Source: Candidatus Dojkabacteria bacterium (GTDB lineage Bacteria > Patescibacteriota > Dojkabacteria > J137). Taken from it: a DNA stretch of 64,000 nucleotides. A program made the position numbers and the translations under genes. The notes beneath the pieces were generated by a model. That model worked only from the letters and a program-made list of their open reading frames with translations, did not search any database and was not told where the DNA came from. The stretch covers positions 120,979 through 184,978 of the forward strand of contig JAUQWV010000001.1 in the NCBI GenBank assembly GCA_030834985.1, given 5' to 3'. Positions 518 through 12,749 of the stretch are shown in pieces. Numbering within the stretch: position 1 is the stretch's first letter; each line of letters starts with the position of its first letter.

Positions 518-883
518 TTAGTTCAGGTAGGCGTTTTCTGGCGGGATACCGTACTTATAGTACATACTTTCTTCAAGCTCGCGTAGAAACGCGATTCGGT
601 CTTCCGCGTGTTTAATTCCTACACACAGCGCCATGAAGAATTTTTCGTACATAAACGGTCTGGTATCCATGCCTTGCGCCCACAAGTGGAATTCCCCGGC
701 AAGGAACACGCCTTCCTGCCACACCTGAAGGTGTAGTCCTACTTTCTCAGGATTAGGGCAGTCCTTGACGACGAAAACGGCGTTGATACCGTTATCCGCC
801 AGTCGGTTCTGCGCTTCTAAGCTGAGTCGTTCAAGAAGGTCTTTGGCTTCGCTGTAATCCGTGGACATTTCTACTCTCCTCAT
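518..883 (-). CDS. hypothetical 121 aa protein; visibly GC-rich relative to flanks; paralog of 1624..1974
   Basis: Intact ORF. Shares a conserved core with the 1624..1974 product (AVFVVKDCPNPEKVGLHLQV vs AIVHIDDCDENPEGEVCLQLII, plus N-terminal Y.EA.DLL.R). G+C by eye ~45-50% versus ~30% around it. Confidence 0.6.
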   Translation of the reverse strand: MRRVEMSTDYSEAKDLLERLSLEAQNRLADNGINAVFVVKDCPNPEKVGLHLQVWQEGVFLAGEFHLWAQGMDTRPFMYEKFFMALCVGIKHAEDRIAFLRELEESMYYKYGIPPENAYLN

Positions 884-2626: not shown

Positions 2627-4102
2627 TTAATCGATTCCTAACCAAACTAGTTTAGGTTTAAAATACAAAACAGAGTCGTTACTTACTTTAATACTTAATA
2701 ATTCTTTTTCTTCCTTAGTTTGAATATCAACTATTCTATACTCAATAATTGTTTCTGTTGCTGCGTTATAGTTTCGGTAGTAAGAAAGAGTGTTTTTTGC
2801 TGGGTTATAAATAAAATTGTATAGATCTTGAGGTAATTTAATAGATTCTATAGGTGACATTGTATTATCTTCATTGTTATATCTATTTATTGTGTATATG
2901 CGGTCACCGGAATAGTTCTCTGTATCTTCTGGTAATGAAGTTAACAAATATATGTCGTCACTACCAATTACTTCAATCTGATGCGTTGTTTCACTTTTTT
3001 CTAAATCTCTAATTTTTGTTAAAGATTTATCGTTAATGTTAAGTCTGTTGATACTTGGTCTATTTGTCTCAGGTGGATTGTAAGGATAATAATTCTGCAC
3101 AATAGCGTTTTCATTTTTTGCAGTTATAATGCTAAGAGATCCTGAATGTTGAACCTCGTTATATATATCAGTAAAATTTCTGTCCTTTAAGGCAAAAGCT
3201 TTTTGATATCCTGCATAGCCGCAGCCCAGGTACATAGAAACAACATTGTTAATAATATTTTTGTTATATGGTACGCAGTCTGGATTACCGTCTGTTAAAA
3301 CGGAAAATTTTGAAATATTAGAATCCGCTATATTGTAAAGGAGTAATTCGTTACCTTGAAGTAGAATGATTTTTGTATTATCACTATCGTATCCAACTAG
3401 TTTAATCTCGTGTGCACCAAGCCTATTACTTAAATCATAAGGTAGATACGAAGTATTATATCCTGCAGCAATATCATCTACGTATTCAACATAACTTACC
3501 GGATAACTAATCAATTCATCATACTCGTTTACATATACACTATAACTATTAGGATATATAACAATCTTTTTGTTATATACCTGCTGGTTTGTAGCTCCTA
3601 GATCAATTCTGTCTGTAGACCAAATTAGCTTATTTTCTCCTGTTTCTAAGTTCAGTTCAAAAACTTTGAATGCTATGGGATCAAATTTAAGCTTAGAAAC
3701 ATCCATATTAGATGCGAAAATTTTGTTCTTGTAATCTTTATCAGACAAACTGTAAGTAATTCTTTTTTTATCAGGCGATATAACATAGTCCATTATTTTT
3801 TCATCACCTGATACTAACTCTAGTTGCTTAACTTTATCTAATGTTGATGCAACAAGCTTATTATCATCTGTATTGTAAATAAAATCGTAGTTATCATAGA
3901 TTTTATCAGATGCTATATTTGGAGCAATTTGAACTTCAGGGGTCTTAGAACCATTTAGGACCAAGGCTATAACTGCAATCATACACAGCAGTACTACTGA
4001 AACAATCGCTGCTGCAATTTTAAATTTCCGTGTTTTGGCTAACGTTTTAAGTTTAGATAGTCTTGAAGCCTTTGTTTCGCCTTGGAGAGCTTGGGTTTCC
4101 AT
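2627..4102 (-). CDS. hypothetical membrane-anchored protein (491 aa), large extracytoplasmic domain
   Basis: One N-terminal TM helix (IAAAIVSVVLLCMIAVIALVL); the rest is polar and Tyr/Asn-rich, beta-rich-looking. Confidence 0.55.
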   Translation of the reverse strand: METQALQGETKASRLSKLKTLAKTRKFKIAAAIVSVVLLCMIAVIALVLNGSKTPEVQIAPNIASDKIYDNYDFIYNTDDNKLVASTLDKVKQLELVSGDEKIMDYVISPDKKRITYSLSDKDYKNKIFASNMDVSKLKFDPIAFKVFELNLETGENKLIWSTDRIDLGATNQQVYNKKIVIYPNSYSVYVNEYDELISYPVSYVEYVDDIAAGYNTSYLPYDLSNRLGAHEIKLVGYDSDNTKIILLQGNELLLYNIADSNISKFSVLTDGNPDCVPYNKNIINNVVSMYLGCGYAGYQKAFALKDRNFTDIYNEVQHSGSLSIITAKNENAIVQNYYPYNPPETNRPSINRLNINDKSLTKIRDLEKSETTHQIEVIGSDDIYLLTSLPEDTENYSGDRIYTINRYNNEDNTMSPIESIKLPQDLYNFIYNPAKNTLSYYRNYNAATETIIEYRIVDIQTKEEKELLSIKVSNDSVLYFKPKLVWLGID

Positions 4103-4209
4103 AGGAAAAAATATAAAAATGTTACATTAATTGTACTAAAATCATCTTACAAAATCTCTACATTTAAGAAAATCTGCGATTTTGCTATACTTACAAAGCT
4201 TACGTTGAT

Positions 4210-4284
4210 GGTGTTGTGGCCAAGTAGTAAGGCGAGAGTCTGCAAAACTCTTATGCGCGGGTGCAAATCCCGCCAACACCTCCA
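4210..4284 (+). tRNA. tRNA-Cys (GCA), CCA encoded
   Basis: Cloverleaf folded by hand: acceptor ggtgttg/caacacc, anticodon stem agagt/actct with loop ctGCAaa, T-stem gcggg/cccgc, discriminator t plus cca. The T-loop reads tGcaaat (G at position 55). Confidence 0.8.
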
Positions 4285-4298
4285 TTTTGAACTACCGG

Positions 4299-4389
4299 GG
4301 AGAGGTCGCATAGTTGGTCTAGTGCGCAGTCCTGGAAAGACTGTTTCCTCGCAAGGGGAACGCAGGTTCGAATCCTGTCCTCTCCGCCA
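4299..4389 (+). tRNA. tRNA-Ser (GGA), class II with long variable arm, CCA encoded
   Basis: Acceptor ggagagg/cctctcc, anticodon stem cagtc/gactg with loop ctGGAaa, 18 nt variable arm, T-loop ttcgaat, discriminator g plus cca. Confidence 0.8.
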
Positions 4390-4624
4390 TTTTTAAATGG
4401 TTCCACAAGACCTGCCTACCTCCTTCTGGTATCTTGAACGGTATTGTACATTGGCTTTCAGTAATTGCCAAATTCACAAAAAGTGCCTATTTTGCTCAAA
4501 AATAGCCATTATCGACTTTTAAACTTACCTCTCTGGTTCTAAGCTTTTTTGTTGCGGGTGTTGTGTATTCTTGATCGATGATTCTCGTTCTAATTTCGTT
4601 CCTCCCTTTTGATATAATTACTTT

Positions 4625-4858
4625 ATGAATAAAGAAAAGGATGTAAAAAAACAACATTACGTTCCACAAGTGTATTTGAGGAGATTTTCAATAAAAAATC
4701 AAATTAATGTATTGGATAAATTTAATGATAAATCTTACCCATCTAATATTAAAGATGTAGCTGAGGAAAATAGATTTTATGATATTCCTATCCCATCAGA
4801 AATAATTGAATTGGCTAAGAAGTCCGGAATAGAAATTGATCATCAATTTGTATTTTGA
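4625..4858 (+). pseudogene. truncated DUF4238-family gene (77 aa N-terminal fragment)
   Basis: N-terminus carries the HYVPQVYLRRF signature typical of DUF4238 proteins, which are normally ~300 aa. The ORF stops after 77 codons, directly downstream of the tRNA pair. Confidence 0.45.
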
Positions 4859-4928: not shown

Positions 4929-5978
4929 ATGGCGAATATAAATTTTGATAGGGAGTACTATAAAAATTTAATAGCGAAGCACGGGTATCAAGAGCTGAAT
5001 ATTTCTGCAATAGATTTCAATCTTGGCGATATTAACAAAGATATATTACAGAGAAAATGGTTGTGTCACAGTAAAGGCTATATATTTGCAAAAGAACTTC
5101 TAGATAAAAAATCAATTGTAACAACTGGTATAGGAATAAGTGGTGCTCCACATATGGGCACTTTAGGACAAATTTTTAATTCTATATTCCTTCAGAACCA
5201 TGGTATTAATACGCAATTTGTATTAGGAGATTTAGATGCTTACAACGGTAAAAAACTTTCATTATCTTACGTAAAAGAACTTTCAGAACAGTATAAATCA
5301 TTTATTACTAAGTTAGGCTATTCTACAACGGATGGAAATATACTAAGGAATCAATTTGATGCAAGTGAAGTAACTAGGACAATGTATCTAATTGCAAAAT
5401 TTATAGAAGATAAAGATTTTGATAATGTGGAAGAAGATCTTCACAATTTTTATTCTGATAAAGGAAAAGTAGATAAGGATATGTCATTTAGACGTAAGAC
5501 TTCTCTTACTCTTATGACTGCAGATTTTATAGATCTTGTTATCAATCACAGTTTTACTAACGTGTTAGTTACATTAGGAGTAGATGAACATAAGTATGTT
5601 TTGTTTTCAGAAAAGATTCTAGAAAGAGTTATAGAGTCCGGTGAAATACTACCAAGCGACAGTATTATAAATTTTGGAGCAATGTACACTCACATAATTA
5701 GAGGCTTTAATAACTACCCTAAAATGTCGAAATCATTCCCTGATTCTTCGATAAATATTGAAATGAAATCAGATGAAATAAGAAATAGAATTTTGAATGA
5801 AAGAACAAACAAAATTCCAGAAGAAGACACTGTATATCAAATGATGTGTCTAGTAAGTAAATTTAATAGTGAGGAACTGTCAAAAAGATATATTGCATGC
5901 AAAGAAGATAAAGCATTATGGATGAAATATAAAAACGACTATATAGAATACTTGATAGATATTTTTAAACTGTGGTGA
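4929..5978 (+). CDS. class I aminoacyl-tRNA synthetase paralog, TrpRS/TyrRS family, divergent (349 aa)
   Basis: HIGH-region-like GIGISGAPHMGTLGQ, FVLGDLDA, and an intact KMSKS (YPKMSKSFPDSSINI...IRNRI). It has an extra ~65 aa N-terminal extension. First gene of a tightly packed operon. Confidence 0.6.
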   Translation: MANINFDREYYKNLIAKHGYQELNISAIDFNLGDINKDILQRKWLCHSKGYIFAKELLDKKSIVTTGIGISGAPHMGTLGQIFNSIFLQNHGINTQFVLGDLDAYNGKKLSLSYVKELSEQYKSFITKLGYSTTDGNILRNQFDASEVTRTMYLIAKFIEDKDFDNVEEDLHNFYSDKGKVDKDMSFRRKTSLTLMTADFIDLVINHSFTNVLVTLGVDEHKYVLFSEKILERVIESGEILPSDSIINFGAMYTHIIRGFNNYPKMSKSFPDSSINIEMKSDEIRNRILNERTNKIPEEDTVYQMMCLVSKFNSEELSKRYIACKEDKALWMKYKNDYIEYLIDIFKLW

Positions 5979-5979
5979 A

Positions 5980-7107
5980 ATGAAAAAATTTGCAAATGGC
6001 ATACAATTTAATAACCCTTTACACGAAGCGATATATCGGATAAACGTTGGACAAGATATAACTGAAGAGATGGCATACAATGCTTTTAGCTATACACTTA
6101 ACATTGAGGATGAAATTAATCGTGGAGTCTGCTTAGGAGTACTACTAAATGGTATAGTTTCCAAAAGACCCCAAATACATGAAATTCTCGGGATATTAAA
6201 AGCAACTCTTGACTATGATGGGATAGATATTACAAATCAAAAAAGATTGGAGATGCCTAACAATGCCCGAGTTATAGGCTATGCAGGGAGCGGTAAGAAA
6301 GGTATAAAAACTATTAATGTGTCTTCTTGCGCAGCCATCGTTGCTGCCACAGCGGGTACTTATGTGGCAAAATCATGTTCTGGTTCTACATCGTCTGTAT
6401 CAGGTTCTGCAGATTTCATTGAAATTTTAGGTGCCAATATTAGCCAAACTAATGAAGAGATGATAGATATAATGAAAAAGACTGGCTTAGGTTTCTTTAA
6501 AATTGAAAAAATGATCCCTAAGTTTGATAAGGTATATGGAGGTCATTTCTATGCACCTAATGCTCTAAGCTTTGGATTAGCAGGTATTTTATTGCCTTTT
6601 AGACCTGACAATTTATTTTACGGTTTAGCCCATCCTAATATTCACTTACTTATAAATGTACTAAAAGAATTAAATTATCGTTATGCATTCGTTGCATCAA
6701 CAACTGATGATGGAGTGCACTTTCTTGATGAGATTGGAATATTTGGTATGACTTCGGTTATTGGTATTCAGGAACATAAAATTGGTCATACTCTTACTTT
6801 CTCCCCAGCAGAAGATTTAAAATTACAAGGATACAATAGAAGTTCAATTGAACCAGGTAAGACTAGATTGGAGAATGTGAAAATGGGTGTCGATGTTTTA
6901 AGAGGGAAAGGCCAAATAGCTCATGAAGATTTGATTTGTGTAAATGCAGGAACCTTACTATGTTTAGACAAAAAAGCTAAAGACTTAACGGAAGGTTACA
7001 CTATATCAAAAGAGACTATCAAATCAGGGAAAGCAATAGAAAAATTAACTGAATTTATTACTGCAACTGGTGGTGATCTCAATACTTTAAATCAGTTTTT
7101 AGACTAA
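5980..7107 (+). CDS. glycosyltransferase family 3 fold protein (TrpD / nucleoside phosphorylase-like), divergent
   Basis: INVSSCAAIVAATAGTYVAKSCSGSTSSVSGSADFIEILGANI aligns by eye with the TrpD core [38 protein letters not shown]. The phosphate-loop GTGGD is replaced by GSGKKG and KHGNR by KSCSG. Confidence 0.55.
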   Translation: MKKFANGIQFNNPLHEAIYRINVGQDITEEMAYNAFSYTLNIEDEINRGVCLGVLLNGIVSKRPQIHEILGILKATLDYDGIDITNQKRLEMPNNARVIGYAGSGKKGIKTINVSSCAAIVAATAGTYVAKSCSGSTSSVSGSADFIEILGANISQTNEEMIDIMKKTGLGFFKIEKMIPKFDKVYGGHFYAPNALSFGLAGILLPFRPDNLFYGLAHPNIHLLINVLKELNYRYAFVASTTDDGVHFLDEIGIFGMTSVIGIQEHKIGHTLTFSPAEDLKLQGYNRSSIEPGKTRLENVKMGVDVLRGKGQIAHEDLICVNAGTLLCLDKKAKDLTEGYTISKETIKSGKAIEKLTEFITATGGDLNTLNQFLD

Positions 7108-8127
7108 TTGAAGGCAATAAAAATTTATAAAAATAAAATAGAATATACAGATATACATGAACCAAAAGTTGATGAAAAGTTTAATGTATTAGTAAGAGTA
7201 ATGTCAGTTGGTTTATGTGGAAGCGATGTACAAAGAATAGATTTTATTAATTCAAATAATCAAGAAATAAACCATCCAGTTTTAGGTCATGAAATTTCTG
7301 GAATTATCGAAGAAATAAAAGGAGAACAAGCTACTTTTAAAGTAGGAGATAGGGTGGCAATCGAACCTATTATCTACTGTAACAGTTGTAAATATTGCAC
7401 CGAAGGGAATTTCCAGTTTTGCGAAAATATCATTGCTTTAGGTAAAACTATTAATGGGGGATTTGCACAAAAAGTAGTTGTGCCAATAGAAAATATACAT
7501 AAACTACAAGATGATATAGACTTTGACACAGGAACTTTACTTGACCTATGCTCTGTCTGTGTACATATTCATAATTTAGCAGGTGATTTTTCAGGAAAAA
7601 ATATTGCAATAATTGGTGATGGTGCAGTAGGACTAATGACCGCAACATTTGTTGAAATATATGGTGGTAAAGCAATTATTATAGGAAAAAGGAAGAATGG
7701 TGGTTATAACTTTGTAAATTTTGAAGATGTTAGGAAACTAAAAGAAATCGAATCTACTTTTGACATAGTTATAGAAACAGTCGGTAGAAAAAATCTCACT
7801 TCCCTTAATCAAGCAATATCATTGAGCAAAATAAAGGGAAAGATTGTTGTCGCAGGTGTATTCGCACCAGAGTTTATGTTGCCAATAACTGCACGAACAC
7901 TTTTTTATAAAGAAATTACTCTTGTTGGAGCTAACTCATATAGTTATGATCATAATAAATCAAGAAGTGAAACTTTGTATGCAATTGAAATATTAAACAA
8001 ACATTATAAGAAGCTGAGTAATCTTATAACTCACAAGTACCCTCTTCAGAAATTTGAGGATGGACTTAATGCATTTAGAAATAAGGACACAAGTCATGCA
8101 ATAAAAATAGTATTTAACCCAAGCTAA
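7108..8127 (+). CDS. zinc-dependent alcohol dehydrogenase (MDR superfamily; sorbitol/threonine dehydrogenase-like); TTG start
   Basis: GLCGSDVQ, GHEISGII...GDRVAIEP, the structural-zinc Cys cluster CNSCKYCTEGNFQFC, and the Rossmann motif IAIIGDGAVG. Confidence 0.75.
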   Translation: MKAIKIYKNKIEYTDIHEPKVDEKFNVLVRVMSVGLCGSDVQRIDFINSNNQEINHPVLGHEISGIIEEIKGEQATFKVGDRVAIEPIIYCNSCKYCTEGNFQFCENIIALGKTINGGFAQKVVVPIENIHKLQDDIDFDTGTLLDLCSVCVHIHNLAGDFSGKNIAIIGDGAVGLMTATFVEIYGGKAIIIGKRKNGGYNFVNFEDVRKLKEIESTFDIVIETVGRKNLTSLNQAISLSKIKGKIVVAGVFAPEFMLPITARTLFYKEITLVGANSYSYDHNKSRSETLYAIEILNKHYKKLSNLITHKYPLQKFEDGLNAFRNKDTSHAIKIVFNPS

Positions 8128-8148
8128 TTTAACTTTTATTAAAATTTT

Positions 8149-9045
8149 ATGAGTACAAAAGAAGAGTTATATAAAAAATATCCTTGGTTAGAAGTAACAA
8201 CTACAATGGTTGATTATGTAAAGCCTAGTTACTACGATAAGATTATTAAGGAATACGAATATAAAGGAAAGAGTGATTTAGACTATACAATTGATTTTCT
8301 AAAAGATCAGACAAGAAAGGATTTGAGTGTTGTTGAGTTTGGAGCAGGTACAGGTAGAGGAACAAAACTTATAATGGAAAATATCGATTTTGATAAGCTA
8401 ACTCTTGTGGATCTAAGTCCTCAAATGATGGAGACTCTAAAAGAATTATTCAGCAAAGATTCTCGGGTACAGTTTGCACAAAGTGATCACCTAAACTTTA
8501 TGGAATCTACTGAGGATGTGTTCGATTTAATGGTGACACTATGGAGTTTATCTCACTCTATCCATCAACATTTTGGAAGAAATAAGGGAGATGATACTAA
8601 GATAGTTCAAATATTAAAAAAGTTCTTCACTAATAATATATCTAAGGAAGGAAAAGCATTCATTATCCACTTCGATACACTATCGGATGAGCAAAGAATT
8701 TTAACTAAACAATGGGCCAAAGTTTATCCTACCTTTGCTGATTATTACCACAATAAAATTCAATCTCCTTCTAAACAAATTGTTGATAAAGTATTAAATC
8801 AACTAAATGAGAGCAATACTATTTCATACAATTGTGAACATATAATAGGAGATGAAATTATATATAAAGATATGAATGAAGCTTTAGAGGTCTTCATGAA
8901 TTTTCATTTAGAATCACATTTCAATCAATTGGATATTGTCGAAGAAGTTGTAGAAGATTTAACAAATGAACTAAATAAATATAAAGACGAAGATGGAACA
9001 ATCAGAGTTAAGCCAGGCTTTTTCCTATACACTATAACAAGATAA
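8149..9045 (+). CDS. class I SAM-dependent methyltransferase
   Basis: Motif I VVEFGAGTGRGT followed by an acidic loop (LVDLSPQM). Confidence 0.6.
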   Translation: MSTKEELYKKYPWLEVTTTMVDYVKPSYYDKIIKEYEYKGKSDLDYTIDFLKDQTRKDLSVVEFGAGTGRGTKLIMENIDFDKLTLVDLSPQMMETLKELFSKDSRVQFAQSDHLNFMESTEDVFDLMVTLWSLSHSIHQHFGRNKGDDTKIVQILKKFFTNNISKEGKAFIIHFDTLSDEQRILTKQWAKVYPTFADYYHNKIQSPSKQIVDKVLNQLNESNTISYNCEHIIGDEIIYKDMNEALEVFMNFHLESHFNQLDIVEEVVEDLTNELNKYKDEDGTIRVKPGFFLYTITR

Positions 9046-9050
9046 TTGAA

Positions 9051-9905
9051 ATGACTAAACCTGAGAATTCTAAATTAATCGTATTAGATATTGATAACAC
9101 TATAAATACTAAAAATCTAAATGGAGAGATTCAATTAGTTAAAGAATTTATAGACTTACATACTAAGATCGATTTAAAGAAGAATATTAAAATTGCTTAT
9201 AATACAACTAGGGGAATCTCTCGGGTTTTGGAAATGCTAAAAGGTGAACAGGAATATTTCGGTAATGGAGTAATATCAGCATTAAATGGTTCTTTGATCT
9301 ACGATCTTAAAGGTATGCAACAACTTGAAGGTTATACTATCTCAAATGATATTAGAAAAATGTTGTCGGAATGGTTTATAAAAAACACAGATATAACATT
9401 TATGGCATTTTATACTAATAACGATATATATGGTCATGTATATTTGAAAGATGCTAATAATGTTGATGAGTTCTATAAATTGCATGAATCTTCTTTTAAT
9501 CATGAGAAATATAGATGTATATCTGATCCTAAAATCTTTGCTTCATGGATTGAACAAAAAGATATCAATATGATTGAATTCAAAACGGCTGATGAAAATA
9601 AAACAAATGAATTTTTGATTAATAATCCCAACATAAACTTCTCCTTTGATGGACATTTTTATATTAATCCTAAAGGTATAAATAAAGGATCAGGGTTAAG
9701 AGATTTAATAAGATTTATTTATAGAGATGAAACTAATTTGGATATTATAGTTGCTGGTGATTCTAAAACAGATTTAGCAATGTTTCTGGATTCAAACTAT
9801 ATGAATATTATTGTCGGAGAAAGACTACCAGAAATTAGAAATGAGAATTATACAAAAGTAAAAGATCCAAAAGAACTTTGCAGTATTTTAAGTAGCTTAT
9901 TATGA
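9051..9905 (+). CDS. HAD-superfamily hydrolase, Cof/IIB-type phosphatase
   Basis: Motif I LIVLDIDNTI (DxDxT), C-terminal IVAGDSKTDLAMF (GDxxxD), and a cap-domain-sized insert. Confidence 0.65.
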   Translation: MTKPENSKLIVLDIDNTINTKNLNGEIQLVKEFIDLHTKIDLKKNIKIAYNTTRGISRVLEMLKGEQEYFGNGVISALNGSLIYDLKGMQQLEGYTISNDIRKMLSEWFIKNTDITFMAFYTNNDIYGHVYLKDANNVDEFYKLHESSFNHEKYRCISDPKIFASWIEQKDINMIEFKTADENKTNEFLINNPNINFSFDGHFYINPKGINKGSGLRDLIRFIYRDETNLDIIVAGDSKTDLAMFLDSNYMNIIVGERLPEIRNENYTKVKDPKELCSILSSLL

Positions 9906-10813
9906 ACATATCCAGCAAAACAAAAGTTAACAGTGTATATCAATTGCCTGCTAATAAAAATGAATTATCAAAATTATCTGATATTACTACACTTGGGAAA
10001 ACATATAGCCTAATGAAATATGGCTCTCGGTTAGCAATCAGAGATTTCGCAGAACTAATATATAGCCAATACGAGAAGGACTTTGATTACAAAGATGGTG
10101 ATTTGTATATAACATCTACTCTAACCTCAGATATTGATTCCAGCTCACACTTTATTGCAAGGGAACTTCAAGAGATTATCAATAGAAAAAGATTAAAACT
10201 TAACCTCAAATCTTGTAAATATATTGAACTACTTGCACGAAAAAAAATACTTATTAGTAGCGATTACGGAAAAGTACAGAATAAAAAAGATAGAATTCAA
10301 TCACAAGGTAATATGGAACTTATAACATATCCAAATCTTAAGTCTGATGATTTACTACTTGTTATTAATGATTGTTTCGTGACCGGTGCTCAATGGGAAC
10401 TACAAGAAGAATTATTGAGAAGTAATAGGTTAACCTCTCTTATTAATTATTACTATATTATTAAATTTACTGAATCAAAAGGTAGCTTTGATATTAGTGT
10501 AGAAGACTTATTGAACAACTATGAAGTTAATAATGATTTAGATTTCTTAAATTTAATTATTAAGCTTTCGAAAGACAAACAGTTAACTTGGAATAAAAGA
10601 ACATTATTAAGGTCACTAAACCTTAATCAAAAACATTTTGAACTATTTATAGATGGGTTGAGAGTCGAAGATTTAGAAACTCTTTGTAATAATTCAGTAT
10701 TATCAGATACTCATCTTGTAAATAACGGAGAGTTTTTAGGCAAAATTGATTATATGTTCAATGTGTTGAAGAATAAAATCCAGAGAGAAGGATTCGAACC
10801 TCCGAAGCCCTAA
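9902..10813 (+). CDS. hypothetical protein with type I phosphoribosyltransferase-like PRPP motif
   Basis: SDDLLLVINDCFVTGAQ resembles the PRTase PRPP-binding loop. The last ~35 nt overlap tRNA-Tyr on the opposite strand, and the C-terminal ...REGFEPPKP is the antisense translation of the tRNA T-arm. Confidence 0.4.
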   Translation: MNISSKTKVNSVYQLPANKNELSKLSDITTLGKTYSLMKYGSRLAIRDFAELIYSQYEKDFDYKDGDLYITSTLTSDIDSSSHFIARELQEIINRKRLKLNLKSCKYIELLARKKILISSDYGKVQNKKDRIQSQGNMELITYPNLKSDDLLLVINDCFVTGAQWELQEELLRSNRLTSLINYYYIIKFTESKGSFDISVEDLLNNYEVNNDLDFLNLIIKLSKDKQLTWNKRTLLRSLNLNQKHFELFIDGLRVEDLETLCNNSVLSDTHLVNNGEFLGKIDYMFNVLKNKIQREGFEPPKP

Positions 10814-10862
10814 GGACGCCTGATTTACAGTCAGGTGCGATTGACCGCTCCGCCATCTCTGG
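10779..10862 (-). tRNA. tRNA-Tyr (GTA), long variable arm, no encoded CCA
   Basis: Minus strand reads CCAGAGA-TG-GCGG-AGCGGTCAA-TCGC-A-CCTGA-CTGTAAA-TCAGG-(15 nt variable arm)-GGAGG-TTCGAAT-CCTTC-TCTCTGG-A. Confidence 0.8.
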
Positions 10863-10991
10863 ATATGAGAAAGTATAACAAAAAGTGGGCTATTTTAGTA
10901 TGTGATGTTACGATAATACAAGACTTTTTGATGAAAAAAGTTTAAAATTAGCCAAATAAAATTAAGAATACTATTTATTCATAAAGAACGT

Positions 10992-12116
10992 ATGTTAGAC
11001 AATCTAAAAAATATAACAGAAGAAATTCTAGGAGAAGAAAGACTCGTAGAGCTATTAAATTCTAATATACAACCAGTACACTATATTGGATTTGAAATAT
11101 CAGGAAAACCTCATATCGGTTCAGGTATTGTTACCATGATGGTTATAAAGGAGCTATTGAAGCTAAATGTTAAATGTAAGATATTTTTAGCTGATTGGCA
11201 TTCATGGATTAATAACAAACTAGGAGGAGACATCGATTTTATAAGAGAGGTGGGCATCCCTTATTTTAAAGAAAACATTTTAGCTGCAGCAAAATGCGTA
11301 GGCGTTGATCCATCTAATATCGAATTTGTAATTGGTTCCGACCTTGCAAAAGATATGCAATATTGGGCTACTGTAGTAGATGTTGGTAGAAATACCAGTC
11401 TATCTAGAATTCAAAGAAGTATTACCATTATGGGTAGAAAGGAAGGAGATAGTGTGGATTTTGCGAAATTAATGTACCCAGCCATGCAAGCAGCAGATAT
11501 TTTCTACATGGGTATACATATCGCTCACGCTGGTATGGATCAACGTAAGGCACATGTTATTGCTATTGATGATGCAAATCATATGGACATAAATCCAATA
11601 ATAGTAAATGAGAAAAAATTTAAACCAGTAGCAGTTCATCAGCATTTACTGATGGGCCTTACTCCTCCATCAAAAGAGATATTAGAACGTATTGAAAAAG
11701 GAGAAATTTCTCCAAAAGATGTTTTAGGGGAATTAAAGATGAGTAAAAGTAAGCCAGACAGTGCTATTTTTATGAATGACTCAGAAGAAGAAGTTATTAG
11801 AAAGATTAACAAAGCTTATTGCCCTGAGGGAATTACTGTTTTAAATCCCGTTTTAGATTGGGTAGAAAACTTGTGTTTTAAATTCTCCAATTCAGAGATC
11901 AATATTCTAAGAGATGAGAAATGGGGAGGAAATATTACCTACAAAACATATGAAGAGCTAAAGAATGATTTTGAACAAAAGAAATTACACCCAAGTGATT
12001 TAAAGAAGGCAGTAGCACTATTTATAAATGATTTCCTTAGACCTGCCAGAGAGCATTTGTCCAAGCAAGAGATTGTTGAAATGGCAAAGAAAATAGAAGA
12101 AAAGGTAACTAGGTAA
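10992..12116 (+). CDS. tyrS: tyrosyl-tRNA synthetase, archaeal/eukaryal type
   Basis: HYIGFEISGKPHIGSG (HIGH region), ELKMSKSKPDSAIFMNDSEEEVIRKINKAYCPEG (KMSKS plus the archaeal-type TyrRS tail). ~374 aa with no bacterial-type C-terminal S4 domain. Confidence 0.8.
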   Translation: MLDNLKNITEEILGEERLVELLNSNIQPVHYIGFEISGKPHIGSGIVTMMVIKELLKLNVKCKIFLADWHSWINNKLGGDIDFIREVGIPYFKENILAAAKCVGVDPSNIEFVIGSDLAKDMQYWATVVDVGRNTSLSRIQRSITIMGRKEGDSVDFAKLMYPAMQAADIFYMGIHIAHAGMDQRKAHVIAIDDANHMDINPIIVNEKKFKPVAVHQHLLMGLTPPSKEILERIEKGEISPKDVLGELKMSKSKPDSAIFMNDSEEEVIRKINKAYCPEGITVLNPVLDWVENLCFKFSNSEINILRDEKWGGNITYKTYEELKNDFEQKKLHPSDLKKAVALFINDFLRPAREHLSKQEIVEMAKKIEEKVTR

Positions 12117-12749
12117 ATGAATAACTTTGAAATAGATAAAAAACAATTTACTTTTAAATATAATGATAAGAATTCAAAAATTCTTATCATTACAGGACCA
12201 AGGTCAGTTGGAAAAACTACACTTGCAAAACAATTTTATGAATCTATAGGTATAGATTTTCTGGATCTCGATGATTTAGTTAATGAGAAGCTGAGTGAAT
12301 TCTTTAAGTCTGGTTCCAAAACACCTTTAGAACAAGCTATGGAGGCAAAAAACTATGACTTAATAGAAAGTATAGTTAGAGATATTGTTCAGAGTTTTGA
12401 TAATATAAACCAAGCTACTGCCATTGCTTTTGCAGGAGGAGCGTATACAGGATACCAAGGGTTATCAGGAGATTTAAAATCGAAATTTATTACAATAGGA
12501 TTAATTCCATACGAGAATGACGATGAACTATCAGTAAAATTGCTAATTGAAAGAGAATCTAATCGGGAGCATTTCAAAAAACTTATTGATGAAGGGAAGT
12601 TAGATATGGAAACTTTATCTAATCGAGTACGAAATGATTATATTAAAGTAAATACTTATCTAAGAGCAAATACAATAGATGAATTAATTTTTATCCAACA
12701 AAAGACACCTATCGAAATAATGAACCAGGTGTTGGATTTATTAAAGTAG
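12117..12749 (+). CDS. P-loop kinase (shikimate/adenylate-kinase-like fold)
   Basis: Walker A ILIITGPRSVGKTTLAKQF followed by LDLDD. Its start overlaps the tyrS stop codon. Confidence 0.45.
   Translation: MNNFEIDKKQFTFKYNDKNSKILIITGPRSVGKTTLAKQFYESIGIDFLDLDDLVNEKLSEFFKSGSKTPLEQAMEAKNYDLIESIVRDIVQSFDNINQATAIAFAGGAYTGYQGLSGDLKSKFITIGLIPYENDDELSVKLLIERESNREHFKKLIDEGKLDMETLSNRVRNDYIKVNTYLRANTIDELIFIQQKTPIEIMNQVLDLLK

Follow-up and report, generated by a model that had tools for sequence, protein, structure and literature searches.

The GT3 gene lies at 5980 to 7107 on the plus strand of the window, i.e. the whole 64-kb stretch of DNA analysed here, and encodes a protein of 375 amino acids from an ATG start codon. 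The open reading frame of an aminoacyl-tRNA synthetase (aaRS) paralog (aaRSp) upstream ends with TGA at 5976-5978, and a single A separates it from the ATG at 5980, confirming the 1-nt gap given in the initial annotation. GT3 in turn ends with TAA at 7105-7107, and the TTG start codon of a Zn-dependent dehydrogenase gene (Zn-ADH) follows at the very next base (7108). The features of the locus, including the GT3 residues considered below, are as follows.

4929-5978, plus strand: aaRSp, type A aaRS paralog with the class Ic (TrpRS/TyrRS) fold, 349 amino acids, Pfam tRNA-synt_1b 41 bits
5980-7107, plus strand: GT3, protein of the 'GSGKKGxKTxN' clade with the TrpD fold, 375 amino acids
6286-6303, plus strand: GSGKKG loop of GT3, residues 103-108, in place of the TrpD GTGGD[GS] 5-phosphate/flexible loop
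6307-6309, plus strand: K110 of GT3, invariant lysine near the GSGKKG loop
6370-6384, plus strand: KSCSG of GT3, residues 131-135, in place of TrpD KHGNR
6526-6528, plus strand: D183 of GT3, candidate specificity residue in the acceptor channel, mapped via 1zvw alignment offsets
6727-6732, plus strand: D250-E251 of GT3, retained Mg2+-binding 'DE' motif of TrpD
7108-8127, plus strand: Zn-ADH, Zn-dependent medium-chain dehydrogenase, polyol/threonine dehydrogenase-like, 339 amino acids, ADH_N E=2e-24
8149-9045, plus strand: SAM-dependent methyltransferase, lineage-specific tailoring gene
9051-9905, plus strand: HAD-IIB (Cof-type) sugar-phosphate phosphatase, Hydrolase_3 E=3e-15
9902-10813, plus strand: weak ComF-like type I PRTase homolog, uncertain cassette member, PF15610 28.6 bits against a cut-off of 28.7
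10779-10862, minus strand: tRNA-Tyr (GTA) with C1-G72, A73 and a long variable arm, the archaeal identity set
10992-12116, plus strand: full-length archaeal-type TyrRS, 374 amino acids, NF006330 386 bits against a cut-off of 220
12117-12749, plus strand: P-loop (shikimate-kinase-like) protein, accessory

The best NCBIfam matches of Zn-ADH were Tdh, idonate 5-dehydrogenase and galactitol-1-P 5-dehydrogenase, all below the cut-off. The methyltransferase gene was found in Saccharibacteria loci, and the Streptomyces avidinii locus has an unrelated methyltransferase; the ComF-like homolog, seen in loci L005 and L006 only, is likewise lineage-specific. The P-loop kinase occurs in Saccharibacteria loci and in one Woesearchaeota fusion (L013), where it is joined to the cassette HAD phosphatase, and it was rejected as a core gene since most 'kinase-HAD' matches cover the HAD half alone. 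The tRNA-Tyr gene, read with published identity rules (PMC5370408), sits between the PRTase-like open reading frame and the gene for TyrRS, the only TyrRS within the 64 kb. With the cluster-linked TyrRS of a Woesearchaeota locus this TyrRS shares 51% identity; the aaRSp and GT3 of that locus share 50% and 45% with the window proteins. CPR bacteria use archaeal TyrRS/tRNA-Tyr pairs (PMC5370408), and the TyrRS of the window, a candidate for a cassette-linked target or immunity enzyme, may be the housekeeping enzyme here. No T-box leader was found in the window.

GT3 matched Glycos_transf_3 (PF00591) with E=2.1e-33 and 116.5 bits against a cut-off of 27, over residues 100-352 and 247 of the 253 model positions; the profile search thus placed it inside the family to which it had been assigned by eye. 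The AlphaFold (AF2) model of GT3 (pLDDT 92.4) showed helices at 13-79 and then an alpha/beta core, i.e. a two-domain architecture of an N-terminal helical bundle and an alpha/beta domain. This fold is shared with anthranilate phosphoribosyltransferase (TrpD; EC 2.4.2.18; PF00591/PF02885; 1zvw, 1khd, 1zyk): the best 50 PDB fold matches were all TrpDs (TM 0.69-0.78, ca. 355 aligned columns), to which GT3 is 19-25% identical. Local alignment to solved TrpDs reproduced the pairing of the TrpD core proposed in the initial annotation (1vqu, E=6e-19, with the GT3 segment running from KTINVSS through KSCSG and GSAD to EILGAN). The description 'TrpD / nucleoside-phosphorylase-like' was upheld in its first half by the structure prediction and the fold matches, but not in its second. 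The C-terminal alpha/beta domain of NP-II enzymes (PYNP_C) is absent from GT3, which ends at residue 375 and has PF00591 as its sole Pfam domain, and NP-II models matched ca. 70 C-terminal residues only, with 30-38 bits (best: residues 300-371, 38 bits against a cut-off of 409). Neither the PDB sequence matches of GT3 (E<=0.001) nor its best 50 fold matches included YbiB.

The top-scoring NCBIfam model for GT3 was trpD (TIGR01245) with 149.7 bits, below the equivalog cut-off of 199.05. The GT3 clade numbers ca. 375 representatives (50% identity, E<=1e-30), and between it and the true TrpDs the scores jump from E=1e-53 to E=1e-18. Several GT3 homologs are auto-named 'anthranilate phosphoribosyltransferase' by JGI, and the Bacillus thuringiensis ortholog is a 'hypothetical protein' in the NCBI pipeline. 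Judged by its sequences, GT3 is a separate TrpD-fold clade with its own invariant signature and not TrpD.

In Mycobacterium tuberculosis TrpD, pyrophosphate and Mg2+ are bound by N117, S119, T120, K135, D251 and E252, the GTGGD loop binds the 5-phosphate and contacts the anthranilate amine, and anthranilate is bound by N138 of KHGNR and R193 of helix alpha8 (PMC9835598). By alignment, the pyrophosphate/Mg2+ ligands correspond to N113, S115, S116, K131, D250 and E251 of GT3. These residues and G142-S143-A144-D145 were conserved at 95-100% in the clade (D250 invariant, E251 at least 97%), so that of the PRPP residues, whose conservation the initial annotation had wished to see checked, those for pyrophosphate and Mg2+ are kept. 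TrpD and GT3 accordingly have in common the NxS[ST] helix cap, the second-strand Lys, GSAD and the DE pair. In contrast, both replacements read by eye, GTGGD to GSGKKG and KHGNR to KSCSG, were found at residues 103-108 and 131-135; across the clade, the former is accompanied by the invariant K110 and the latter takes the form K[PS]xSxxTSS. Within KSCSG, the pyrophosphate-contacting Lys (K131) is kept and the His, Asn and Arg are replaced, the anthranilate-binding Asn138 becoming S134. The column of TrpD Arg193 holds H189 here and Lys in about half of the clade, and His183 of M. tuberculosis TrpD corresponds to I179. GT3 also differs from TrpD in a four-residue insertion before DE, with a conserved His (H247). 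The GSGKKG and KSCSG substitutions are not sequencing noise, because S104, K106, K107, K110, K131 and S134 are invariant among 49 family members. Of the substituted phosphate and PRPP-binding loops claimed earlier, the 5-phosphate loop and the acceptor site are thus changed, whereas the pyrophosphate/Mg2+ ligands are conserved.

The score of aaRSp was far below the TrpRS and TyrRS equivalog cut-offs of NCBIfam, and automatic pipelines name genes of this type 'tryptophanyl-tRNA synthetase'. It carries a HIGH-like PHxGT motif and an exact KMSKS, with H75, G77, T78 and K265-S269 invariant. Its AF2 model (pLDDT 89.3) shows the class Ic fold over the full length, with the C-terminal helical domain present, and Foldseek matched this model to archaeal and eukaryal TrpRS/TyrRS (TM 0.62-0.74, 14-18% identity). 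The invariant KMSKS and HIGH-like motif argue for retained ATP chemistry, and aaRSp is predicted to be an ATP-dependent amino-acid-activating ligase. A cyclodipeptide synthase was rejected, tRNA-synt_1b being the sole match and KMSKS being intact.

Seventy GTDB loci were collected, of which 65 were typed (48 type A, 17 type B); their hosts are CPR bacteria, DPANN archaea, Firmicutes, Actinobacteria and others. The type A cassette consists of the aaRS-like protein, GT3, Zn-ADH and usually a HAD phosphatase, and type B combines GT3 with a different aaRS-like protein, an AKR, a nucleotidyltransferase and HADs. The type B aaRS paralog had no PDB sequence match. In type A, aaRSp adjoins GT3 in 47 of the 48 loci and Zn-ADH is present in 46; natural fusions join GT3 with aaRSp (P0244 and P0255) and the ADH and GT3 domains within a single protein (P0104). 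A HAD phosphatase (Hydrolase_3 or HAD_2) was found in 28/48 type A and 12/17 type B loci, and the cassette phosphatases are drawn from non-orthologous HAD families. Every variant has a sugar/polyol oxidoreductase, which is Zn-ADH in type A and AKR in type B; at one locus of a sister clade it is a RibD_C-family homolog of ribosylamino-pyrimidinone-5'-phosphate reductase. TyrRS accompanied 44/48 type A and 0/17 type B loci, and TrpRS 14/17 type B and 0/48 type A loci, although the loci share phylogeny and the count of 44/0 against 0/14 therefore overstates the statistical support. Where a linked aaRS is missing, the locus is mostly on a cut contig. A trp-operon arrangement was seen at none of the 65 typed loci, GT3 always occurring with the aaRS-paralog cassette.

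Two to three TyrRS genes were present in 13 loci. Archaeal hosts carry a bacterial-type TyrRS beside the cassette and this bacterium an archaeal-type one, and the cassette TyrRSs fall in mixed-taxon clades. On the B. thuringiensis plasmid pBMB172, the order is recombinase/IS6, aaRSp-GT3-ADH-HAD-MFS-tyrS and IS4, this tyrS being extra; an EamA exporter gene was found at L075, and relaxase and T4SS genes beside L002 and L081. In Bacilli loci, a T-box leader lies on a second TyrRS copy (or MetRS) and none on the cassette copy, and T-box control of the cassette was rejected on this ground. Cognate tRNA genes were found in or beside 3 of the 33 scanned sequences (the window and 32 loci), namely tRNA-Tyr in the window and L003 and tRNA-Trp in L032, all with ordinary anticodons (GTA, CCA); a pyrrolysine-like code-expansion cassette was rejected for these reasons. 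An anti-phage defence system was also rejected, as the PADLOC matches were generic P-loop only. A full-text search found no description of the GSGKKGxKTxN clade or of the cassette, which is not proof of absence.

The GSGKKG loop is identical between type A and type B loci. Residues 179, 183, 196 and 132-135, mapped to the acceptor channel by alignment, co-vary with the type of the linked aaRS, which weakens the idea, drawn from the shared invariants, that GT3 provides one and the same scaffold in types A and B. At position 183, clusters linked to TyrRS have Asp or Asn and those linked to TrpRS have Ala, as do fusions with a type-B-like ligase; a TrpRS-linked member of the sister clade has Asn, not Ala. 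The residue differences between the types could reflect clade divergence instead of substrate.

Since the Mg2+-pyrophosphate leaving-group site is kept, PRPP or a similar sugar-1-diphosphate is most likely still used. From the conserved residues, PRPP itself appears the most likely donor and the acceptor is probably an amino acid or a derivative; the anthranilate site is lost, and GT3 has a lysine-rich GSGKKGxK loop and a rebuilt acceptor channel. The reaction type, in which an amine displaces PPi from C1 of PRPP, is probably shared with TrpD. We propose that a PRPP-type N-phosphoribosyltransferase and an aaRS-derived ligase jointly make a conjugate of Tyr (or Trp) as an inhibitor of the cognate aaRS, the linked aaRS providing immunity, and we put the probability of this reading at about 0.5. 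GT3 would be an active TrpD-fold enzyme with PRPP, or a very similar sugar-1-diphosphate, as donor and an N-(5-phosphoribosyl) product. aaRSp, coupled or fused to it, would activate Tyr with ATP, the Zn-ADH present here would reduce or oxidise the ribosyl/ribityl chain, and the HAD phosphatase would take off the 5-phosphate. The end product would be a small secreted Tyr-(pentose/pentitol) conjugate inhibiting TyrRS, with the cassette TyrRS as the insensitive target of the producer. We infer this order of steps and the antibiotic/immunity role. It would be unusual for TyrRS to bind a Tyr derivative that carries an alkyl group on its alpha-amine, and an antibiotic cluster is unexpected in very small CPR/DPANN genomes.

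The small genomes of many hosts, CPR and DPANN symbionts, would also suit a metabolite derived from Tyr or Trp that does not act on an aaRS, such as a signal, a form for transport or storage, or an opine-like N-ribityl amino acid. On this view GT3 remains a PRPP-type N-phosphoribosyltransferase, and the linked aaRS might, for example, tell the analogue from the normal amino acid or sustain charging when the amino acid is drained. The same enzymology (PPi/Mg site, oxidoreductase and phosphatase, RibD_C homolog) speaks for it, and EamA and MFS exporters move ordinary metabolites too; we nevertheless regard it as unlikely, as cognate-aaRS pairing, multiple aaRS copies, cross-domain types, and plasmid or IS location with an exporter fit producers of aaRS inhibitors. 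Rather improbable is an action of GT3 on RNA or as a non-catalytic nucleic-acid binder like TrpD2/YbiB, in a cassette that modifies tRNA-Tyr/tRNA-Trp or gives alternative aminoacylation. K106, K107 and K110, the three invariant lysines gained in the loop, would bind the RNA backbone, cognate tRNA genes accompany three loci, and aaRSp keeps the full-length aaRS fold with its C-terminal helical domain. TrpD2/YbiB proteins have the same fold and, like GT3, have lost the canonical GTGGD and gained basic residues; TrpD2 proteins are known DNA binders (PMC9835598). However, TrpD2/YbiB, which binds nucleic acid, is without the PRPP motif (PMC9835598), whereas the GT3 clade keeps the whole pyrophosphate/Mg site, and YbiB was matched neither by PDB sequence nor among the best 50 folds. 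TrpD2/YbiB has a helicase/SOS gene context, while the polyol dehydrogenase, AKR, HAD phosphatases and MFS/EamA around GT3 point to small-molecule chemistry; moreover, tRNA genes are absent from most loci, and where they occur their anticodons are ordinary.

The tight coupling, conserved adjacency and fusion of the pair are what would be expected if aaRSp were no ligase but a subunit that regulates GT3 by sensing an amino acid or presents the substrate to it, as in HisG/HisZ. HisZ is catalytically inactive, unlike aaRSp with its invariant KMSKS and HIGH-like motif, and this arrangement seems quite improbable to us. A little more doubtful still is an NP-II-type phosphorylase (thymidine, pyrimidine-nucleoside or AMP) that would release ribose-1-phosphate or ribose-1,5-bisphosphate for the pathway. 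The superfamily is shared, weak C-terminal NP-II matches were obtained, the added lysines could bind phosphate, and AMP phosphorylase pathways are frequent in CPR and DPANN organisms, which are among the hosts. Against it stand the absent C-terminal domain, the score of 38 against 409 bits, the Mg-binding DE pair, and the best sequence and fold matches, all of them TrpD. An ordinary divergent anthranilate phosphoribosyltransferase of tryptophan synthesis, to which the JGI names and the best NCBIfam model point, can hardly be maintained: the score is 149.7 against a cut-off of 199, GTGGD, KHGNR and the anthranilate Arg/Asn are replaced by other invariant residues, a trp-operon arrangement was seen in 0/65 typed loci, and NCBI gives the B. 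thuringiensis ortholog no such name. The sub-cut-off score, the separate clade, the replaced Asn and Arg, and the constant absence from trp operons support the earlier suggestion of a substrate unlike that of TrpD.

Returning to the aaRS-inhibiting conjugate, producers of albomycin (SerRS), mupirocin (IleRS) and indolmycin (TrpRS) have a second, insensitive target aaRS, often xenologous, which lies in or near the cluster and can be plasmid-borne (PMC9437257). The same pattern of an extra target aaRS is seen at GT3 loci, and across the loci taken together the cassette pattern (linked TyrRS/TrpRS, at least two TyrRS copies in 13 loci, foreign types, exporter, mobility) matches a self-resistance aaRS cluster, although the window itself has a single TyrRS in its 64 kb. 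The set of TrpD-like, aaRS-like, Zn-ADH and HAD proteins, however, resembles none of those pathways, the GT3 hosts include CPR bacteria and DPANN archaea, and the 2022 review names no producer cluster with a linked TyrRS (PMC9437257). It is speculation that SB-219383, a TyrRS inhibitor of Micromonospora, is the product of the actinomycete cassettes; the literature search found nothing on its biosynthesis.

aaRS cores are reused outside translation in MshC, the CysRS-like ligase of mycothiol synthesis, and in GluQRS/YadB. MshC, GluQRS/YadB and HisZ all have an aaRS catalytic core outside translation, as proposed for aaRSp; aaRSp differs in being class Ic (Trp/Tyr type), in keeping KMSKS and in being fused at times to its partner. 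In the riboflavin pathway, a RibD-type enzyme reduces an N-(5-phosphoribosyl)amine to a ribitylamine and a HAD phosphatase acts next, and the iminosugar route of Bacillus comprises three genes, for amination, a phosphatase and a Zn-dehydrogenase. By analogy of gene content only, the substrates being different, a putative phosphoribosylamine former, a reductase or polyol dehydrogenase and a HAD phosphatase recur in all cassette variants. The pairing of a PRPP-dependent transferase with an aaRS paralog is known from HisG-HisZ (PMC9437257), although the partner of aaRSp is a type III (TrpD-fold) phosphoribosyltransferase and not of the HisG fold.

Mukai et al. (2017) described cross-domain TyrRS/TrpRS, C1-G72 tRNA-Tyr in CPR, and an extra TrpRS with an 'ORF1' that has HIGH/KMSKS-like motifs (PMC5370408). 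Their 'ORF1' operons share cross-domain TyrRS/TrpRS, C1-G72 tRNA-Tyr and extra TrpRS copies beside a protein with HIGH/KMSKS-like motifs with the GT3 cassettes; a TrpD-like gene is unmentioned there, and antibiotic production was judged unlikely for those operons (PMC5370408). As a more tentative extension, the cassettes may represent a widely transferred new class of aaRS-targeting aromatic-aminoacyl-pentose/pentitol conjugates, made by a TrpD-derived amino-acid N-phosphoribosyltransferase and a TrpRS/TyrRS-derived ligase. If they spread together with an immunity synthetase, this would be part of the reason why TyrRS/TrpRS and tRNA identity have repeatedly been exchanged across domains among CPR, DPANN and other prokaryotes.

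If the proposal is true, GT3 would add to the enzymes of the TrpD fold a branch with a new acceptor, the third after anthranilate phosphoribosyltransferase and the nucleoside phosphorylases, and a class Ic synthetase scaffold would be newly used as a biosynthetic ligase. The cassette would be a compact mobile pathway of 4-6 genes for TyrRS/TrpRS inhibitors, of which few natural ones are known, and toxin plus immunity synthetase would be a selective force behind TyrRS/TrpRS transfer between bacteria and archaea. The hypothesis lends itself to direct testing, as the cassette is present in strains in culture: Bacillus thuringiensis C15 (pBMB172), Bacillus cereus-group strains and Clostridium beijerinckii HUN142, and among actinomycetes Nocardia, Dactylosporangium, Nocardiopsis and Streptomyces avidinii strains. 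The analysis also corrects the names 'anthranilate phosphoribosyltransferase' and 'tryptophanyl-tRNA synthetase', given to these genes by automatic pipelines.

GT3 is encoded on the plus strand from an ATG start and is 375 aa long. As described in the initial annotation, a single base separates its gene from that of the upstream aaRS paralog (aaRSp), the TGA codon of which lies at 5976-5978; the Zn-dehydrogenase gene starts at the base right after the GT3 stop codon. The relevant features of the window are as follows:

518-883, minus strand: small ORF, 121 aa
1624-1974, minus strand: small ORF, 116 aa
4210-4284, plus strand: tRNA-Cys (GCA)
4299-4389, plus strand: tRNA-Ser (GGA)
4929-5978, plus strand: aaRSp
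5980-7107, plus strand: GT3
9902-10813, plus strand: ORF, weak ComF-like PRTase homolog
10779-10862, minus strand: tRNA-Tyr (GTA)
10992-12116, plus strand: TyrRS

Pfam placed GT3 inside the Glycos_transf_3 family (E=2.1e-33, nearly the full model covered). The best matches among solved structures were anthranilate phosphoribosyltransferases (TrpD; E ~1e-19), and the alignments printed by this search reproduced the earlier by-eye alignment, with GSGKKG (residues 103-108) in the place of GTGGD and KSCSG (residues 131-135) in the place of KHGNR. When the AlphaFold model of GT3, built from 49 family members (pLDDT 92.4), was compared with the PDB, the top 50 matches were all TrpD (TM 0.69-0.78, 19-25% identity). 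The proposed TrpD or nucleoside-phosphorylase likeness thus held for TrpD but not for the NP-II type, since GT3 has no C-terminal NP-II domain and matched the NP-II models weakly, over ~70 residues. A TrpD2/YbiB-like protein was also considered and rejected, because that family is without any PRPP motif (PMC9835598), unlike GT3. On the curated TrpD model, GT3 scored 149.7 bits against a cut-off of 199. A search of 5.8 billion proteins returned 107 relatives at E<=1e-53, with true TrpDs lying beyond a score gap, at E ~1e-18; searching 1.84 billion representatives with a profile gave ~375 clusters at E<=1e-30. Judged by sequence, GT3 is a member of a separate clade and not a TrpD.

The active site was mapped onto M. 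tuberculosis TrpD through alignment offsets, with the roles of the residues taken from a 2023 review (PMC9835598).

Active site of M. tuberculosis TrpD (PMC9835598) and GT3
Pyrophosphate and two Mg2+: TrpD, N117, S119, T120, K135, helix alpha6 cap, D251, E252; GT3, N113, S115, S116, K131, GSAD, D250, E251 (kept)
5-phosphate loop: TrpD, GTGGD; GT3, GSGKKG plus K110 (replaced)
Anthranilate ligands: TrpD, N138, R193, H183; GT3, S134, H189 (Lys in about half of the clade), I179 (replaced)

On this mapping, GT3 retains an intact leaving-group half of the TrpD active site and has a rebuilt acceptor half. The earlier description of substituted PRPP-binding loops therefore applies to the 5-phosphate loop and the acceptor half but not to the pyrophosphate/Mg2+ ligands. 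Its expectation of a substrate or chemistry other than that of anthranilate phosphoribosyltransferase was supported by the score below the TrpD cut-off, the separate clade and the replaced anthranilate ligands. G103, S104, K106, K107, K110, N113, K131, S134, S139, Y186, L196, S197 and D250 are invariant in the clade, and E176, F182, H218, H247 and E251 are nearly so. Carboxylate binding by the lost arginine may have passed to the new lysines. Wider relatives have GSGK in common, followed by different residues (GSGKDD, GSGKDE and others). A further GT3-like subgroup (P0242, P0245, P0247, P0250 and P0257; 440-470 aa) carries an N-terminal extension and a GSGKK[ED] loop, with IDQ at the place of the Mg-binding DE pair, and could represent a branch that is inactive or does not use Mg.

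The scan covered one genome per GTDB species and yielded 70 loci; one further locus, from Streptomyces avidinii, was looked up separately. ORFs were called at every locus and classed by phmmer, and representatives were checked against Pfam and NCBIfam. The hosts were bacteria (Saccharibacteria, other CPR phyla, Bacilli, Clostridia, Bacteroidota, Proteobacteria and Acidobacteria), including actinomycetes (Nocardia, Dactylosporangium, Nocardiopsis and Actinospica), and archaea (Woesearchaeota, Nanoarchaeota and Methanosarcinales). The GT3 gene of the window itself was present in two MAGs (98-99% protein identity). Typed loci comprised 48 of type A, the window included, and 17 of type B.

Gene content of type A and type B cassettes
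aaRS paralog: type A, ~350 aa, 47/48 loci; type B, ~395 aa, 15/17 loci
Oxidoreductase: type A, Zn-ADH, 46/48; type B, aldo-keto reductase, 14/17
HAD phosphatase: type A, 28/48; type B, 12/17
Full-length TyrRS: type A, 44/48; type B, 0/17
Full-length TrpRS: type A, 0/48; type B, 14/17
Other type B genes: PF14907 nucleotidyltransferase, 14/17; uncharacterised 370-aa protein

The expected aaRS was missing in seven loci, six of which were on short or cut contigs (exception, L052). A Paceibacteria locus (L024) carries two GT3-clade genes, at 9908-11083 within a type B cassette and at 3568-4683, the latter much more divergent. In the Streptomyces avidinii locus (L001, 11125-21090), the cassette is enlarged by a methyltransferase, a carbamoyltransferase and three glycosyltransferases (EryCIII-like, GT4 and GT2), suggesting a more decorated product.

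GT3 and the aaRS paralog are very likely functional partners, to judge by the 1-nt coupling, near-universal adjacency and two natural fusions. In both fusions, P0244 (736 aa) and P0255 (717 aa), residues 1-350 correspond to GT3 and residues ~380 to 730 to the aaRS paralog; KMSKS was found in P0244. In loci L078-L080 (gene 8001-10211 in L078), the fusion gene has a C39-peptidase ABC exporter and a phosphopantetheinyl transferase in its vicinity, a different cluster architecture. In sequence, the aaRSp of the window is highly diverged from true synthetases: it scored 41 bits on its Pfam model, and its best PDB sequence match had E=0.002. Its AlphaFold model (pLDDT 89.3) nonetheless matched full-length archaeal/eukaryal TrpRS and TyrRS (TM 0.62-0.74). 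This synthetase-like fold and the invariant H75-x-G77-T78 and K265-M-S-K-S269 argue for retention of ATP-dependent amino-acid activation.

The linked synthetase probably travels as cargo of the cassette rather than sitting beside it by chance. Two or three TyrRS genes are present in 13 type A loci. In archaeal hosts, a bacterial-type TyrRS with an S4 domain adjoins an archaeal-type TyrRS, and the bacterial host of the window has a TyrRS of archaeal type. Identities between the window and one Woesearchaeota locus were similar for TyrRS (51%), aaRSp (50%) and GT3 (45%), as expected under co-transfer. In a distance tree, clades of cassette TyrRS mixed Gammaproteobacteria, several CPR phyla, a Bacillus plasmid, Thermodesulfobacteriota and Alphaproteobacteria, and another united Bacteroidota, Methanosarcinales and DPANN archaea. 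Housekeeping synthetase genes of Firmicutes are usually controlled by T-boxes. In three Bacilli loci that have two or three TyrRS genes, the TyrRS copy outside the cassette operon is preceded by a T-box leader (L003, 11712-11900; L008, 14442-14635; L016, 14234-14415), and none was found for the in-cassette copy at these loci. A tRNA-Tyr lies downstream of the T-box-controlled copy in L003. The clearest case of a synthetase carried as cargo is plasmid pBMB172 of Bacillus thuringiensis C15 (NZ_CP021438.1), with the order recombinase, IS6, aaRS paralog, GT3, ADH, HAD, MFS transporter, tyrS and IS4, the six cassette genes spanning 110240-116636; NCBI labels its aaRS paralog and GT3 'hypothetical protein'. 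Relaxase, T4SS or resolvase genes adjoin other cassette loci.

All cassette variants combine GT3 with a sugar or polyol oxidoreductase, usually together with a phosphatase. The nearest models of the type A Zn-dehydrogenase are polyol and polyol-phosphate dehydrogenases. A locus of the sister clade (L075) encodes a Zn-dehydrogenase together with a homolog (118 bits) of the archaeal 2,5-diamino-6-(ribosylamino)pyrimidinone 5'-phosphate reductase (RibD_C-type), a family whose known substrates are N-(5-phosphoribosyl)amines; an archaeal-type TrpRS, a TrpRS-like paralog and an EamA exporter are also encoded there (4934-11792). The GT3 of L075, with a GSGKDD loop, adjoins a fragment-sized NAPRTase C-terminal-domain protein. 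Because the HAD families of the cassette phosphatases differ among loci, a dephosphorylation step, rather than one particular gene, is suggested to be required. In the proposed route, GT3 would form an N-(5-phosphoribosyl)amine from PRPP and an amine, the pentose chain would then be reduced or oxidised and dephosphorylated, and the aaRS-like enzyme would activate or join an amino acid. This route fits the intact pyrophosphate/Mg site and the oxidoreductase and phosphatase gene content, and is probably the chemistry of the cassette. We have high confidence that GT3 belongs to a clade of its own, TrpD-derived and catalytically competent, with a functional link to an aaRS-like partner and a cognate aaRS. 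The full mechanistic reading, in which PRPP-dependent N-phosphoribosyl transfer feeds a TyrRS-inhibitor pathway with an immunity TyrRS, is given a probability of about 0.5.

The catalytic invariant residues are the same in both types, and the following differences were found at positions aligning with the acceptor channel of TrpD:

Position 183: type A, Asp or Asn; type B, Ala
Position 179: type A, Ile, Leu or Val; type B, Thr
Position 196: type A, Leu; type B, Met
Positions 132-135: type A, variable; type B, Ala-Cys-Ser-His

Ala183 also occurs in the GT3-aaRSp fusions with a type-B-like ligase. These type-dependent residues and the Ala183 of the fusions hint weakly that the acceptor contains a Tyr or Trp side chain. 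Clade divergence alone could account for the differences between the types, and a TrpRS-linked GT3 of the sister clade has Asn183.

Producers of albomycin, mupirocin and indolmycin are known for an additional copy of the target synthetase that is insensitive to the antibiotic, their hallmark (PMC9437257). The 64-kb window contains a single TyrRS. Its neighbouring tRNA-Tyr has the archaeal identity set (C1-G72, A73 and a long variable arm), and CPR bacteria use archaeal TyrRS/tRNA-Tyr pairs as a working system; such pairs were reported in other CPR phyla by Mukai et al. 2017, in which Saccharibacteria are not listed (PMC5370408). On these grounds, the cassette TyrRS may serve as the housekeeping enzyme here; it might have displaced the original TyrRS, or may merely adjoin the cassette.

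The literature search found no description of the GT3 clade or the cassette, and no TyrRS copy linked to antibiotic production is listed in a 2022 review of duplicated synthetases (PMC9437257). The system resembles TrpD in its fold and in one half of the active site, HisG-HisZ in pairing a phosphoribosyltransferase with an aaRS paralog, MshC in its putative aaRS-derived ligase, antibiotic clusters with self-resistance synthetases in the linked copy, and the riboflavin pathway in the proposed ribosylamine reduction and subsequent dephosphorylation. It is a new functional variation on known systems, not a wholly new one. The cassette is widespread, mobile and misannotated, and is accessible to experiment in cultured Bacillus, Clostridium and actinomycete strains.

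Three genes of the window are lineage-specific additions, coding for the methyltransferase, the weak ComF-like PRTase homolog and the P-loop kinase; the downstream sortase, Nudix, DHH and ABC genes show no conserved association with the cassette. The 3' end of the PRTase-like ORF overlaps the opposite-strand tRNA-Tyr by 35 nt (10779-10813), and either its called end or the ORF itself is doubtful. The tRNA-Cys and tRNA-Ser genes lie immediately upstream of the cassette; tRNA genes are a typical integration landmark, and no integrase was seen near these two. The two small ORFs further upstream had no Pfam match and are apparent paralogs of each other, and the stretch containing them has a G+C of 0.40, as against 0.28-0.33 in the cassette.
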